Shown here in pieces: positions 5,106 through 60,478 of a stretch of 64,000 nt of DNA. How positions within the stretch are numbered: the first letter of the stretch is position 1; the number at the start of each line of letters is the position of its first letter. The notes under the pieces were generated by a model. The model ran no database searches. It had not been told where the DNA came from and saw nothing but the letters and a program-made list of their open reading frames with translations. Origin of the DNA: Escherichia coli (lineage in GTDB: Bacteria; Pseudomonadota; Gammaproteobacteria; Enterobacterales; Enterobacteriaceae); the NCBI RefSeq assembly GCF_965641715.1, contig NZ_OZ282453.1. One strand, 5' to 3'. The translations under genes were made by a program, and so were the position numbers.

Positions 5106-5934
5106 GACGATGCCCTCCGCTGATATTCAGGAAACGGTGAATATGAAGATTAGCCTTATCCGCCAGACGAATACGTTCAGCCTGCAAGTTAAGAAGGGTT
5201 TCTACCAGAACCTGATGCGCCTGCGGATCCGAAAGAGTTACCTTGCGCAGAGCACGTAGTGCAGTTGTTACATAGCTGAGTTTATGTAAGTCTTCATCAT
5301 TCAGACGAGTGAGGGCTGGGACAGTAGCCATGATGGCAGCCTCCGTATGCAATGGATAACTTCCACCACCGGAAACGCCAATTTCGCTGGTGGTGAACTG
5401 AGCAGGGTTGGCGTAACCGGCGCATACGGAAACCGGCGCACCTTTCGGTGCCCCCACCCAGCCCACCATAATTTGGGTATAGCTGAGTTGTAGCAACAAA
5501 AAAGACGCTAACGCGCCAATTGTCGCCGTATGCAATTCCAGGACGCCAATCCCGGCACCCGCTTTATAAGGTGCCTGAACAGTGTAACGTCCCGGAATGG
5601 CAGAATCAATGTGCTGGTGGTCCTTCACACTCAACAAAATCACGCCTGAATTTCCACAAAGGGCTAAAGCACTCATGCGGGTAGTCTTTGCGAAGATAGA
5701 TAACGCGCTGTGTTTCTGGTTCCCAACGAATAACATGGACATAAAGCCCTCTTCCGTCACGAAACCAGCGGTTAAGTTCCCGCACAACTCGCCCCCCACA
5801 GTCAGGTAAAGTTCTCTGTGGTTACTTACAGCCAGGTGATTTGGTAATCTGCATTCATGCCGTAACAACAGGTGTTCAGCGACACTGACCACCAGCTGTT
5901 GCGACAAACGGTTATTTGCCGTTAAACTGTTCAT
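5098..5934 (-). CDS. Hypothetical phage protein (early right operon)
   Basis: 278-aa ORF, co-oriented and overlapping neighbours; no motif recognised. Confidence 0.35.
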   Translation of the reverse strand: MNSLTANNRLSQQLVVSVAEHLLLRHECRLPNHLAVSNHRELYLTVGGELCGNLTAGFVTEEGFMSMLFVGNQKHSALSIFAKTTRMSALALCGNSGVILLSVKDHQHIDSAIPGRYTVQAPYKAGAGIGVLELHTATIGALASFLLLQLSYTQIMVGWVGAPKGAPVSVCAGYANPAQFTTSEIGVSGGGSYPLHTEAAIMATVPALTRLNDEDLHKLSYVTTALRALRKVTLSDPQAHQVLVETLLNLQAERIRLADKANLHIHRFLNISGGHRHA

Positions 5935-19735: not shown

Positions 19736-19905
<170 letters not shown>

Positions 19906-20028
19906 TAGTCTCCTGATGGACATTTTTCCAGCAATTACACATCAGGCGATAATTAACTATTGACGAAAAGCTGAAAACCACTAGAATGCGCCTCCGTGGT
20001 AGCAATTCTTTTTAAGAATTGATGGTAT

Positions 20029-20115
20029 GCGAAGGTGGCGGAATTGGTAGACGCGCTAGCTTCAGGTGTTAGTGTCCTTACGGACGTGGGGGTTCAAGTC
20101 CCCCCCCTCGCACCA
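20029..20115 (+). tRNA. leuQ: tRNA-Leu (anticodon CAG)
   Basis: 87-nt sequence GCGAAGGTGGCGGAATTGGTAGACGCG ... CCCTCGCACCA; anticodon loop CTTCAGGTG. Confidence 0.9.
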
Positions 20116-20143
20116 AAAACCACGTTGATATTGCTCGCACTGG

Positions 20144-20230
20144 GCGAAGGTGGCGGAATTGGTAGACGCGCTAGCTTCAGGTGTTAGTGTTCTTACGGAC
20201 GTGGGGGTTCAAGTCCCCCCCCTCGCACCA
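20144..20230 (+). tRNA. leuP: tRNA-Leu (anticodon CAG), one substitution relative to the flanking copies
   Basis: 87-nt copy; variable-arm difference GTGTTCTTACGG versus GTGTCCTTACGG. Confidence 0.9.
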
Positions 20231-20264
20231 AACGAGGCGATATCAAAAAAAGTAAGATGACTGT

Positions 20265-20351
20265 GCGAAGGTGGCGGAATTGGTAGACGCGCTAGCTTCA
20301 GGTGTTAGTGTCCTTACGGACGTGGGGGTTCAAGTCCCCCCCCTCGCACCA
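20265..20351 (+). tRNA. leuV: tRNA-Leu (anticodon CAG)
   Basis: 87-nt copy identical to the first. Confidence 0.9.
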
Positions 20352-50624: not shown

Positions 50625-50710
50625 TCGTGAAAGGTTGAGTGTAAAGCAGCTCAATGCCCCATTTAGCAGTGAGGGGGGAAACAGAACGACGTGCTCCCCT
50701 CCGCTAAGTT

Positions 50711-50902
50711 TTATTGCGCGTGAATACCTGGATCTGGCAAAAAATTGCCGCGTTTGGCGTCAGACCATGCTTCGCTACCAGAAGCAGGAATGTCGCTGTA
50801 ATCAATGTCTTCGTCGGATTTATTAACCAAAGCCATGAGTTCAGCTTCTTGCTGCACATCAAGTGTGTAGAGTGTGCCCCGTTTATGTTTAACCATGCTC
50901 AT
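50711..50902 (-). CDS. Small ORF with possible antitoxin-like motif (weak)
   Basis: 63 aa; DEDIDYSDIP ... WSDAKRG is reminiscent of BrnA-like antitoxins; no partner toxin seen. Confidence 0.2.
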   Translation of the reverse strand: MSMVKHKRGTLYTLDVQQEAELMALVNKSDEDIDYSDIPASGSEAWSDAKRGNFLPDPGIHAQ

Positions 50903-50941
50903 TTATGACCAGAACCTTTACGATTTAATTATAAAGATGAC

Positions 50942-51943
50942 TTATTTCAGCCATCCAGGCACGTTATATTCTGAGACATTCTCAATGGAATATGCATCTC
51001 TCCTGTCAGAACCTTTCTTACACTTCAACTCATTGAACCCCCATTTACCCTCTCTATTGGAATAAAATACAGTATATTTATCAGTATTAAACCCGAAATA
51101 TCTTTCATCCGGACGTGAAATATTCAACTCTCCACATTTAACCTGACTGCGCCATTCAAAATCTATGGTGCTTTTTAAAACGTAGTACGAAATATTCTCT
51201 ACATTTTTTGAAGCAAAAACTACTAAAATAGTAGATACTATAAATGCTCCGGCAAGTATAAATAACCTATACACACTTAATTTAGTCCCCAGAGTTAAAA
51301 AAGCAAAATAGATAATAAGTTGCATCAACATGAAGAAAATCAACAAAAAAGCCATCCCTTTCCAGAAATACTCAACCCATGGTGATAGTGTGATATTTAG
51401 ATTACTCAAACTTAAAAATAAACTGGAAGAAAAACTACTTGAGAATAAATATATAATTGGTATGACAGCTAAAGTCATAGACCTAATAATCATTAATTTT
51501 TTATTATTTTTAAATTCCAACTCTAATATAATAAAAACACCTCCCAGAAAAACAAATACTGAAAAAGCACTAAAAACGTATACAGAGACACTGACTGGAA
51601 AAATATTAATTGAAAGCACAAAAAACAAAAATATAAACCATGCAATAAGTGAACACCAGGCAGCACAACTATTCAAACTGTTTTTATTACTGAACTTGAC
51701 AAAATACCCCATATATTCTGTAATGCGATTTTCTTCCACTAATGCATAAAGAAGAATACCAACAAAGCACAGAGATAAAATAATATCTTTCCACAGATAT
51801 TTATAAGGGAGAAGTATAAAACCAAGGAGTAGATAAATTAGCAGAATGACATCTAATGCCTTAGTACAAAAATATTGTTTCACTCCTTGCAAGAACCGAA
51901 CATTCTCCATATGAATCCTTCTCCAGCTATTGATGAAACTCAA
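50942..51943 (-). CDS. AT-rich polytopic membrane protein (about 6-7 TM) with about 80-aa C-terminal soluble tail; occupies the mrr slot
   Basis: 333-aa ORF with visibly low GC (AT-rich); multiple long hydrophobic segments; no motif recognised. Confidence 0.5.
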   Translation of the reverse strand: MSFINSWRRIHMENVRFLQGVKQYFCTKALDVILLIYLLLGFILLPYKYLWKDIILSLCFVGILLYALVEENRITEYMGYFVKFSNKNSLNSCAAWCSLIAWFIFLFFVLSINIFPVSVSVYVFSAFSVFVFLGGVFIILELEFKNNKKLMIIRSMTLAVIPIIYLFSSSFSSSLFLSLSNLNITLSPWVEYFWKGMAFLLIFFMLMQLIIYFAFLTLGTKLSVYRLFILAGAFIVSTILVVFASKNVENISYYVLKSTIDFEWRSQVKCGELNISRPDERYFGFNTDKYTVFYSNREGKWGFNELKCKKGSDRRDAYSIENVSEYNVPGWLK

Positions 51944-52050
51944 GAATACCTTTAAAACAGTGACTTAACGCTGATAATACTCTTTGAACAGATGAATTCA
52001 TCTATTTTTCTGTGTAGAATTTGCGCATCGCATTTAGATGAGAACACCCC

Positions 52051-57776: not shown

Positions 57777-57996
57777 TTCCCTCGCCCTCAAAAAACCAAT
57801 AAAGCGGCTAAATAGCCGCTTTATTCACATCACCAAAAATTATATTTCACGCTAAACTTCATCTTATTTTCATTAATTTTTAGCTGGACTTCCCCTGTAT
57901 TTACTGATGATATATCCAGGTATTTAGCGCGGTGCGGATGTGCGCCAACACACCCGCACCGCTAATCACAATCCCTATTTCTAAGGAATAGTAATC

Positions 57997-58338
57997 ATGA
58001 CTGACACGCATTCTATTGCACAACCGTTCGAAGCAGAAGTCTCCCCGGCAAATAACCGTCAATTAACCGTGAGTTATGCGAGCCGCTACCCGGATTACAG
58101 CCGTATTCCCGCCATCACCCTGAAAGGTCAGTGGCTGGAAGCCGCCGGTTTTGCCACTGGCACGGCGGTAGATGTCAAAGTGATGGAAGGCTGTATTGTC
58201 CTCACCGCCCAACCCGCCGCCGCCGAAGAGAGCGAACTGATGCAGTCACTACGCCAGGTGTGCAAACTGTCGGCGCGTAAACAAAAGCAGGTGCGGGAAT
58301 TTATTGGGGTGATTGCGGGTAAACAGAAAGTCGCCTGA
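57997..58338 (+). CDS. symE: SOS-induced toxin-like protein SymE
   Basis: 113 aa starting [34 protein letters not shown]; matches recalled K-12 SymE; adjacent to hsdS as in K-12. Confidence 0.8.
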
Positions 58339-58384: not shown

Positions 58385-60478
58385 TTATACCAAGGCGCTC
58401 TCCATCTGTTTTTCAAATGCCTGACGAATTAATCCCATAATGTAAGGAAGTTGTGCGAGGTCACTGAAACCAATTTCCACATCACCATTACCCCAGCGCC
58501 CAACATTTGTCACATCTTTGGCAATACCTTTCGGATCGACCAGTTCATGAAACTGCATATTAAGCGACAATCGCAGTCGGCTTTTTTGCGGCACAACATC
58601 AACAAAATTCGTTTCCGCTTTAAACGCAATATATAGCTTCAATACTTCCTGCGTGATCCCTGCGTCCAGGCGCATAACTTCATCGCGAAGATGATCGAAT
58701 AACACCCGGCTATGCGAACCATCAGCAAGAAAAGGATAATCACTCAGGCTGTAACTGGTTTTGTTTTCAGGCTGTCCCCGATAAACAGCTAAAACCTCTT
58801 CAGGAAGAGAAGGCGCTTGCCAGACCTGAACCGCGAGATCGGCCAGACGATCGGCTCGGGCGTGAATGGCGGCTTCATCCCATTTTTCGCACTGTCCAAG
58901 ACCGATATTCAAATAGAGCGGGCTATGCTTAAAGCCGTCTTCAATATCGCGTTTTTCTGCGAAAGGTCTGTCACTGTAACGGGAGTTATAGCGCGTTAAA
59001 GTGAGATTCCCCAACGTATGCAACAGTTCTTTATGAATACGCTGCCAGTCGCTTCCCAGCTCTTCGCGCCATTTAGCCGACAAATTTTCGTTCTGCGGCA
59101 TAATATGTTCAATCGTAAACTCTTCCACGCGCTCTCTGCGTTTATCGTTTTCCAGTCGTCGTAACCAGTAGCTGCGACTACGGAAGTTATAGAGATCGCG
59201 AACTTTTAATTCCCGTTTAAATTCATCATCGTTGGGGAAACGACGATATGAAGGTAGATTCAAAAAATGTACCTGAATACTTTCCAGATAATTTTCTTTA
59301 TTAATAACTTTATAAAAAGTGGCAAATGTCTTGTTCAAAGAATTTGTCGGAATTGCACATACTGCACGGCGGAAAACATAAGATTCAATTAAACGAATTA
59401 TGCTCAGGAAATCTTCGTGAGACAAAACGCCATTTTTATAGTCATGATAAAGCGCCAGTAAGAAAGGATACACCACATCGACCTTTAACTCGCGCAAATC
59501 CTGAAAAGCCGTAGCAAGCAATTTGTCACTTTCTTTTCCCAATGCCATTGCACAGTAATACTCCGCGTAGATATGAATATCTTCAACCAGCCGATCTACG
59601 CCTTTTTCAGCAACACTCTGGCTGCGGGCATGGAGTTTAAATGCCTCATAGACTTCATCTGTCCGAGGGATCTCCCCCGTTTTTACCGTCAGATAATGAC
59701 GCATAAAACTGTCAAAATATTCGCTGTAACCTTGCTGACCAAAGGCGACTTCCATTGGACGCCAGTGATCTTCATACAACCGGGTTTGATGCTCTGGTTC
59801 GAGGCCCATCAGAATAAAATTGCGCACCAGATCGGCCTGACTTAACGCCTTACCGGTGGAGTTCATACTTTCAAAAATCAGTTGCGGATTATCCTGACCA
59901 CGATTAAGCGCCACATCGACAATTAATAACTTTGCTAACCCACGACATAAGGGGATCAAGTCATCACCGAGTTTGGCAATTTGTTCATCAAAGAAAGTAA
60001 AGTTTTCCATTATTCGATGGGAATAGTTTTCTGGCATTGGTCTTTGTTTTATTAACGCCAGTAAACTGTCTTTATCAGTCTCGGTCAGCAGTAATTTAAA
60101 ACCTTTCTCGCCGGACTCATAAGGATTGAGCAAATAATAATTACGCAATTTCATTGCCGAAAAGCCATCAAAAACTTCGTCTTCGCCAAGATGGCGCGAT
60201 AAAGCCTCAATCAGCAACATTGCGGTCGTCAGCCGCTGCTGACCATCAATGACCAGCAACGGAGAAATACCAGAAACCTGATACAATCCCTGCTCTATAT
60301 AAACAACCGAACCGATAAAATGCGCTGATATATCGTCACGCTTTCCTGCACGAATGATGTCGTCCCAAAGTTGCCGACATTGTTGCCCGGTCCATGAATA
60401 AGTCCGTTGATAAATGGGAATAACAAACTGCTGCGAACGTTTTAAAAAATCGAGTAGGCGAGCTTCTGTAGCTTTCAT
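58385..60478 (-). CDS. GmrSD-family type IV (modification-dependent) restriction endonuclease candidate (DUF262 plus DUF1524)
   Basis: 697 aa; N-terminal DUF262 motifs (IPIYQRTYSW, DGQQRLTT); C-terminal His-Me finger-like TIEHIMPQ. Confidence 0.65.
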   Translation of the reverse strand: MKATEARLLDFLKRSQQFVIPIYQRTYSWTGQQCRQLWDDIIRAGKRDDISAHFIGSVVYIEQGLYQVSGISPLLVIDGQQRLTTAMLLIEALSRHLGEDEVFDGFSAMKLRNYYLLNPYESGEKGFKLLLTETDKDSLLALIKQRPMPENYSHRIMENFTFFDEQIAKLGDDLIPLCRGLAKLLIVDVALNRGQDNPQLIFESMNSTGKALSQADLVRNFILMGLEPEHQTRLYEDHWRPMEVAFGQQGYSEYFDSFMRHYLTVKTGEIPRTDEVYEAFKLHARSQSVAEKGVDRLVEDIHIYAEYYCAMALGKESDKLLATAFQDLRELKVDVVYPFLLALYHDYKNGVLSHEDFLSIIRLIESYVFRRAVCAIPTNSLNKTFATFYKVINKENYLESIQVHFLNLPSYRRFPNDDEFKRELKVRDLYNFRSRSYWLRRLENDKRRERVEEFTIEHIMPQNENLSAKWREELGSDWQRIHKELLHTLGNLTLTRYNSRYSDRPFAEKRDIEDGFKHSPLYLNIGLGQCEKWDEAAIHARADRLADLAVQVWQAPSLPEEVLAVYRGQPENKTSYSLSDYPFLADGSHSRVLFDHLRDEVMRLDAGITQEVLKLYIAFKAETNFVDVVPQKSRLRLSLNMQFHELVDPKGIAKDVTNVGRWGNGDVEIGFSDLAQLPYIMGLIRQAFEKQMESALV

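Follow-up and report, generated by a model that had tools for sequence, protein, structure and literature searches.

The window analyzed here is a stretch of 64,000 nucleotides of Escherichia coli DNA (contig NZ_OZ282453.1 of assembly GCF_965641715.1) that includes the immigration control region (ICR). In the slot between yjiA and hsdR we found a gene on the minus strand (50942..51910, stop codon included) coding for a membrane protein of 322 amino acids. This open reading frame (ORF) is a real gene under selection. It is also a horizontally mobile single-gene unit, which alternates in a cassette-like manner with type IV restriction genes and recurs in defense hotspots. Sequence comparison places its product in a previously undescribed family, apparently restricted to Enterobacterales and without known relatives. 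Our preferred reading of its function, held at a probability of about 35%, is that the protein may be a stand-alone phage-exclusion factor working at the level of the cell envelope.

The first-pass annotation of the window, made from the sequence alone, had given the ORF a length of 333 amino acids, and the minus-strand frame 50942..51943 does have this length when counted from the TTG at 51943. The existence of the ORF was upheld, while its length had to be corrected. A Shine-Dalgarno (SD) sequence, GGAGAAGGA, is situated ~6 nt upstream of the ATG at 51910; the Prokaryotic Genome Annotation Pipeline (PGAP) places the start at this ATG in three annotated genomes; and the alignment of every homolog to the ORF begins there as well. 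Since the SD sequence, the PGAP calls and the homolog alignments all favor the ATG at 51910, we consider the product to be 322 amino acids long and the TTG at 51943 an improbable start. The product is equivalent to WP_097437591.1, hereafter termed allele 1.

At the base composition of the ORF, a stop codon is expected once per ~13 codons, and the probability of 322 open codons in a row is ~7e-12. Therefore, the ORF is far longer than expected by chance. The GC content was 0.313 (0.29 at third codon positions) compared to 0.542 for yjiA, 0.496 for hsdR and 0.498 for the whole window, in line with the first-pass remark that it was far below that of the neighbors. We found no homopolymer tract of the phase-variation type (at least 7 nt).

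The ratio of non-synonymous to synonymous substitution rates (dN/dS) between two E. coli alleles of the ORF was 0.35 (dS 0.13; 0.22 in transmembrane (TM) helices 3-7), compared to 0.04-0.05 for hsdR and yjiA. The allelic differences clustered in the TM helices. Nucleotide divergence from the window peaked within the ORF at 7.6-10.8% and stayed at 0-2.8% in most of the flanking intervals. The O26 strain RM8426 and a strain with allele 1 had identical HsdR and 'antitoxin' proteins (the latter described below), with a difference of ~10% in the membrane protein; allele 2, of the O26 type, is WP_000432643.1. The comparison of the sequences indicates that the ORF is under relaxed but real purifying selection and carries a locally imported divergent patch.

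With the alignment of 21 family members as input, AlphaFold2 produced a model of the full protein with pLDDT of 85.8 and pTM of 0.75. Seven long helices extended to residue 235, followed by another helix (residues 237-252) and six beta strands (residues 256-316), and no cytoplasmic domain was seen in the model. Modeled by themselves, the C-terminal 87 residues reached pLDDT of 90. We thus divided the protein into residues 1-235 (51206..51910, minus strand), a cytoplasmic N-terminus and seven TM helices delineated by the model, by charge counts and by conserved positions, and residues 236-322 (50942..51205, minus strand), for which the alignments and the domain model predict a periplasmic domain made of one helix and a six-strand antiparallel sheet. 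The 6-7 hydrophobic helices noticed in the first pass are accordingly seven.

The topology, a prediction of which the first-pass annotation had proposed, was assessed from the numbers of Lys and Arg residues in the loops delimited by the AlphaFold2 helix boundaries. Lys+Arg amounted to 10.6 per protein in the N-terminus and loops 2-3, 4-5 and 6-7, compared to 1.1 in the other loops. Because this positive-inside pattern was present in 21 out of 21 members, a cytoplasmic N-terminus is predicted, and the C-terminal domain should lie in the periplasm.

The tail of this protein had been described in the first pass as a soluble stretch of 80 amino acids with no recognizable motif. The tail matches no known family; it is a conserved helix/beta domain of ~85 amino acids with invariant residues (E252, W253, C259, Y271, F292 and C297). 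In every family member the last 90 amino acids hold exactly two cysteines, the invariant C259 and C297, which would form a disulfide in the predicted periplasmic domain. The C-terminal beta domain is the best-conserved region of the protein (0.59), followed by the TM5-6 loop (0.56), with values of 0.27-0.37 in the N-terminus, TM1-2 and the cytoplasmic loops; conservation therefore peaks on the periplasmic face. A conserved polar stripe runs along TM5-TM6 (Y154, S158, S163, S169, P177, E180, K184, Q197 and Y201).

In Pfam, the query had no match at E≤10 and none of the 21 members had a match at E≤0.001; NCBIfam gave no significant match either. Homology to a transporter or a housekeeping membrane protein, named in the first pass as a finding that would speak against a defense gene, was not seen in these two libraries. 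Searches of PDB sequence profiles with the whole protein and with the domain returned SecY (E=4-9.5) and PMT3 (E=0.05), both dismissed as noise. No structurally characterized fold was matched at full length or at the domain level, nor was there a fold match hinting at a mechanism, and Foldseek matched only 'uncharacterized' proteins in AFDB50. Two ideas on the domain were dropped: P0052/P0053, with 7-8 matching stretches, are tandem-repeat proteins with inflated scores and give no lead to a repeat family, while a WG/KWG-type repeat was unsupported by Pfam.

An exhaustive phmmer search of 1.84 billion representatives yielded 30 matches, about 20 of which were full-length clusters, and a profile built from the full alignment added only Erwinia-type members. 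The profile of the C-terminal domain, run against 5.8 billion proteins, recovered only fragments of the same family, so that no other architecture was found to contain this domain. In a scan of 100,044 species genomes, the family was found in Enterobacterales alone. Homologs at identities of 23-44% are known from 10 or more genera of this order. A single 'Bacillota MAG' (metagenome-assembled genome) contig with a family member was 99% E. coli and was probably mis-binned. The literature, searched by accession and by concept, gave no description of the protein.

The only plasmid match was a 373-kb record, NZ_CP135245.1 (pOHT76-1_1, 'non-mobilizable plasmid'), carrying the chromosomal btsT-yjiX-yjiA-ORF-hsdR segment with a frameshifted ORF. 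Either a chromosomal segment was mis-assigned here, or the record represents a large chromid.

The limits of the mobile unit were determined by comparison with the E. coli O157:H7 strain SS52. Homology to SS52 stops at 50633, 9 nt past the yjiA stop codon, and restarts at 52040, 11 nt before the hsdR ATG. The variable cassette between these breakpoints (50634..52039; 1,406 bp, GC 0.346) holds the ORF and a 63-codon 'antitoxin' remnant. O157-type loci have in its place a 1,975-bp cassette with a GmrSD-like DUF262/HNH gene. In K-12, which has the type IA system, the slot is occupied by mrr; the order yjiA-mrr-hsdR, given in the first pass, was verified on NC_000913.3. Two further first-pass statements agreed with these data: the slot is a site of exchange of restriction genes (mrr in K-12, the GmrSD-like gene in O157:H7), and the gene is foreign, having low GC and lying in a discrete 1,406-bp cassette. 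At least three haplotypes of the locus exist.

The first-pass annotation had also suggested a comparison of the locus across E. coli, for which we used 5,426 complete genomes. The ORF was present in 443 of them (~8%), among them O26 Shiga toxin-producing E. coli and human extra-intestinal isolates, and the alternative GmrSD-like cassette in 572-621. Type IB hsdR was present in 970 genomes; thus, the two cassettes roughly split the type IB loci. A dedicated accessory to type IB restriction-modification (R-M) was considered and rejected, as more than half of the IB loci lack the gene and most homologs have no hsd genes nearby.

A separate observation concerned the ST361 genome NZ_CP103704.1, where an IS1-bounded deletion spans the stretch between the antitoxin remnant and a truncated DUF262 gene. 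The membrane-protein gene, hsdRMS and symE are gone, and with them the whole ICR core.

Homologs were also located outside E. coli. In Salmonella, a homolog occupies the same yjiA-hsdR slot, without the 63-codon remnant; the identity to E. coli is 81% for HsdR, 91% for HsdM and 91% for YjiA compared to only ~43% for the membrane protein. In Enterobacter asburiae, the homolog adjoins yjiN (product 79% identical to K-12 YjiN), the opposite anchor of the ICR. The other recurrent position is the leuX locus, where the order lptG, tRNA-Leu(CAA), P4-type integrase, homolog was seen in Pectobacterium, Lonsdalea, Enterobacter sp., Enterobacteriaceae RIT693 and metagenomic contigs. This position is known as hotspot 37 (HS37) (PMC12707154; bioRxiv 10.1101/2022.06.09.495481), and the ICR and HS37 are the two classical enterobacterial defense hotspots (PMC12707154).

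At leuX, the homolog follows the integrase on the same strand at a distance of ~50 bp, an arrangement kept across integrase lineages that are just 65% identical. Five loci (L003, L004, L017, L018 and L020) represent islands of ~10 kb, with att-like repeats in L017 and L018. Their backbone consists of int, the membrane-protein gene, Integrase_1 and RelE/MqsA-like genes; L003, L004 and L020 also have a primase/Ash/AlpA module, and HigBA is likewise carried in the leuX islands. A variable slot at the far end holds PARIS AriAB, SIR2-HerA, TIR PDC-S35, FRG with an OLD-like gene, or AbiL. The leuX islands are a family of compact defense-carrying elements. Within it, the membrane proteins were 70-74% identical and the integrases 90-96%. 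Another locus, L007, is a remnant with only the integrase and the homolog.

A motif, TTATTTTATGGA(T/A)(G/A)AA, was observed ~20 nt upstream of the homolog ATG in L003, L007, L017, L018 and L020. It is probably the ribosome-binding region. The motif is kept in these five integrase-linked loci despite protein identities of 65-74%, and it is absent upstream of the E. coli gene.

Besides these two hotspots, homologs were seen beside various known defense systems. In Pantoea coffeiphila, the homolog is located next to type I Zorya and SoFic. Adjacency to type I Zorya arose twice independently (L019, 2110-10954, and L031, 9001-18936), within 1-2 genes, the intervening genes being different; the family members at these loci were 31% and 24% identical to the query, respectively. 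With only two adjacent loci and differing intervening genes, a dedicated Zorya accessory was rejected. In Atlantibacter, the homolog is situated beside MADS and an endonuclease acting on phosphorothioated DNA (PT-DNA), and one further homolog is beside dndBCDE. Near the L013 copy there are arrays of small DUF1493/DUF8209 genes. A truncated, divergently oriented copy in Proteus lies by a type I R-M system and a low-GC polysaccharide-type cluster (MOP flippase, glycosyltransferase-like genes), while in Erwinia the homolog is accompanied by symE, and a type VI secretion system (T6SS) Hcp/Tlde1 cluster lies 1.7 kb away.

In total, ~8 of 12 distinct contexts had a known defense system within 10 kb, by our own count in a small sample and without a background rate. 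With known systems recurring next to it, the family is, by guilt by association, a resident of defense islands. No neighbor gene was found to be conserved across loci; therefore, the membrane protein appears to act alone.

We infer an anti-phage role from these contexts and from the architecture of the protein. With no cytoplasmic domain and no partner, the target that it recognizes must be in the membrane or the periplasm, and for that reason a block at the stage of entry fits best. In the proposed mechanism, the conserved face on the periplasmic side, made up of the beta domain, the TM5-6 loop and the TM5/TM6 polar groove, would engage a conserved component of genome entry at the inner membrane, either a host factor exploited by phages or the phage ejection/tape-measure apparatus. 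Productive DNA entry would then be blocked, with no dedicated partner gene required. In choosing between exclusion at the envelope and cytoplasmic sensing or cell suicide, we lean toward exclusion. Extended to all homologs, and with the same roughly one-in-three chance, this would make a new fold-orphan family of stand-alone anti-phage proteins of the inner membrane, acting from the periplasmic side and either stopping genome entry or sensing invasion.

The closest functional model appears to be SieA of phage P22, likewise a lone and self-sufficient inner-membrane protein with no enzymatic domain, acting at the step of DNA entry. SieA, however, has 162-164 amino acids and 3-4 TM helices, is prophage-encoded and carries a motif, FxRYPxEAxxFNK, predicted to be cytoplasmic, whereas the protein described here has 322 amino acids, seven TM helices, a periplasmic beta domain and no copy in a phage genome. 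The motif was found in 0 out of 21 family members. T4 Imm and HK97 gp15 (the HK97 work is cited in PMC10883804) likewise keep genomes from passing the inner membrane; they are small phage-encoded membrane proteins that have one or two TM helices, and no relationship to them was detected in sequence or fold. Our protein may work in the manner of SieA, Imm and gp15, with an architecture that is larger and different, and it is encoded in the chromosome or in islands.

Defenses of E. coli can operate at the injection site, as demonstrated by SNIPE: constitutively located in the membrane, it works where the genome is injected and is found in association with tape-measure proteins and with entry factors of the host (PMC13190303). 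SNIPE has a nuclease effector, whereas our protein has neither a nuclease nor any cytoplasmic domain. Mrr and the GmrSD-type type IV enzymes share with it the yjiA-hsdR slot, where they are exchanged as cassettes, but they are soluble DNA-binding nucleases; the membrane protein is integral and has no homology to them, and neither the winged helix and the Mrr-cat PD-QxK nuclease domain of Mrr nor any other Pfam domain was found in it.

Several observations weigh against phage exclusion. The search of PADLOC-DB v2.0.0 (5,027 models), which had been proposed in the first pass, matched the protein to no defense family at E≤1; the search itself works, since the neighbors in other loci matched strongly in the same library. 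There was no match in PHROGs, and the family was not found in 50,697 phage genomes, although classical superinfection-exclusion genes are prophage-borne. In some genomes the ORF has decayed through IS1/IS5 insertions, one frameshift and one IS1-bounded deletion. Conservation is strongest on the very face presumed to interact, and the allelic differences lie in the TM helices, unlike what is expected of an arms-race interface with diverse phage proteins; binding to a conserved component of the host would explain this pattern just as well. Within the leuX islands, the gene belongs to the integrase-proximal backbone, with the recognized defense systems in a separate slot. Finally, co-location in AT-rich recombination hotspots could in part be a matter of where the chromosome tolerates foreign DNA, and solitary low-GC copies stand among core genes (between yecA and uhpA in Pantoea and in an fdn-LysR locus). 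The homologs in other genera lie mostly in defense hotspots, with these solitary copies as exceptions.

These same solitary copies would fit a gene for non-defense envelope cargo, a passive passenger of hotspots in the style of lysogenic conversion. The protein would then modify or bind a lipid-linked glycan, peptidoglycan, lipopolysaccharide or enterobacterial common antigen, or serve some other niche function. The lysogenic-conversion proteins of the GtrC and Oac types are encoded by low-GC polytopic membrane genes beside int and function facing the periplasm, and conversion genes typically share the very low GC and the integrase-proximal position of our family. Aromatic residues abound in the periplasmic domain (W253, Y271, F272, F274, Y279, W290, F292 and W320), as they do in glycan-binding modules, and the strongly conserved periplasmic face suggests a conserved host ligand. 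Non-defense cargo has been described in the ICR (PMC12707154).

However, GtrC and Oac types belong to recognizable glycosyl- or acyltransferase families and usually need GtrA/GtrB. None of these families matched the protein in Pfam or NCBIfam; across the 21 members there was no match to a family of glycosyltransferases, acyltransferases, ligases, Wzy, Wzx or PAP2. A set of conserved His, Asp and Arg residues of the catalytic kind is absent, also from the membrane part, and no gtrAB-like genes accompany the gene. The Proteus copy abuts a polysaccharide-type cluster but is truncated and points the opposite way. On balance, we find the role of envelope cargo doubtful.

An effector of abortive infection would share the defense-island contexts with an exclusion factor. 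In such a case, the protein would sense a perturbation of the envelope at phage entry or lysis and depolarize or permeabilize the inner membrane, and the cell would die before phage release. The polar stripe of TM5/TM6 (S158, S163, E180, K184 and Q197) could line a pore, and the polytopic membrane proteins of known systems are mostly seen as suicide effectors (PMC9122126). RexB and the TM effectors of CBASS, Pycsar and retrons are likewise polytopic and reside in defense islands (PMC9122126), but they use a sensor partner or a signaling nucleotide. Here, neither a cytoplasmic sensor domain nor a partner sensor gene conserved across the loci is present, and an unregulated pore former is hard to square with a solitary gene. 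Given also that no similarity was seen to RexB, to the CBASS/Pycsar TM effectors or to other PADLOC effector models, we regard a suicide role as unlikely.

The single-gene organization, the conserved domain facing the periplasm and the divergent alleles would also suit an orphan immunity protein kept against competitors, the toxin being one that acts on the membrane or in the periplasm (a pore-forming bacteriocin, a contact-dependent inhibition (CDI) toxin or a T6SS effector). The Erwinia copy near the Hcp/Tlde1 cluster and the small-gene arrays near the L013 copy point the same way. Yet no toxin gene is adjacent or co-oriented at any locus, a T6SS effector occurs in one of the ~12 contexts only, with symE in between, and PADLOC, NCBIfam and Pfam gave no match. 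The known immunity proteins against pore formers are, moreover, much smaller. An immunity function is, therefore, quite improbable.

We give as little credence to the gene being a backbone component that serves the ~10-kb leuX islands themselves, for instance by interacting with a helper phage, by excluding rival elements or by aiding maintenance, in which case the ICR and solitary copies would be detached leftovers. The tight pairing of int and the ORF across integrase lineages, the separate slot of the recognized defense systems and the reduction of L007 to int and the ORF do accord with such a role. On the other hand, the gene persists without the integrase or backbone in E. coli, Salmonella, Enterobacter, Pantoea, Erwinia and Atlantibacter, purifying selection remains on it away from the islands, and it evolves faster than the integrase (see the identities above).

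That the ORF is a decaying, silenced foreign gene without current function is very improbable: AT-richness, the insertions, frameshift and deletions in some genomes, and many fragmentary database entries are set against a dN/dS of 0.35 rather than ~1, at least 80% of the gene kept in 409 of 443 carriers, invariant residues and a confident fold maintained across genera at the low identities given above, and names that mark many of the 'partial' entries as contig-end truncations.

The second gene of the cassette, overlooked in the first pass, lies on the minus strand between yjiA and the ORF (50711..50902), 39 nt downstream of the ORF. PGAP annotates its 63-amino-acid product as an 'antitoxin' (WP_000063145.1). 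It was found in 511 genomes, always accompanies the ORF where E. coli has it, and has no match in Pfam, NCBIfam or PADLOC. There is no adjacent toxin ORF, as a BrnTA type II toxin-antitoxin system would have. Going by the PGAP name and by the listing of brnAT among the ICR toxin-antitoxin systems (PMC12707154), the product is probably a truncated brnA remnant. A functional operon pair of the remnant and the ORF was rejected, the remnant being absent from Salmonella and all other genera.

The intergenic region between the divergent ORF and hsdR (51911..52050; 140 bp) contains the ribosome-binding site of the ORF. Only its last 11 bp lie outside the cassette; therefore, the upstream signals of hsdR travel with the cassette. 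Conservation with Salmonella reaches down to 51937. The scan for promoters and terminators gave no signal above chance and turned up no consensus sigma-70 promoter on the minus strand. Also within the cassette, between the remnant stop and the yjiA stop, we observed a GC-rich inverted repeat (GGAGGGGAGC...GTTTCCCCCCTC; ~50665-50700), which may terminate transcription of the convergent genes in both directions.

Elsewhere in the ICR of the window, the symR antisense RNA (Rfam RF01809, 93 bits; 57926-58338) overlaps the 5' end of symE; symE/symR, the type I toxin-antitoxin pair of the ICR, is kept beside the type IB hsdS. Where K-12 has mcrBC, the window has an intact DUF262/GmrSD-like gene of 697 codons (58385-60478, minus strand). 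In the closest annotated strain, 19SZHZ869Rt, this gene is split and hsdM and hsdS are pseudogenes, and so the ICR of the window looks more intact. Far from the ICR, C4 antisense RNA (RF01695) and isrK (RF01394) are adjacent at 5386-5574 on the minus strand, signatures of a prophage- or satellite-type immunity region, and at 19807-20348 a naRNA4 (RF02564) precedes three tandem tRNA genes whose scores are identical (20029-20348).

The ICR is the oldest studied defense island, and ~8% of complete E. coli genomes hold in it an uncharacterized conserved gene. A recent review of the ICR lists restriction enzymes, toxin-antitoxin systems and some metabolic cargo, and not this membrane protein (PMC12707154). 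If the gene turned out to be non-defense cargo, it would call for caution in guilt-by-association discovery in hotspots. If the exclusion reading is true, the gene would be the first defense determinant of the classical ICR that does not target nucleic acid, adding a non-nuclease layer to it, and the family would be a new one of membrane-protein defenses with a new fold, exchanged with type IV enzymes much as alleles are and also carried next to the integrase in the leuX defense islands. It would then help to explain why type IB hsd loci fall into two forms, those holding a type IV enzyme and those holding the membrane protein, and would bear on the prediction of host range for phage therapy in Enterobacterales.

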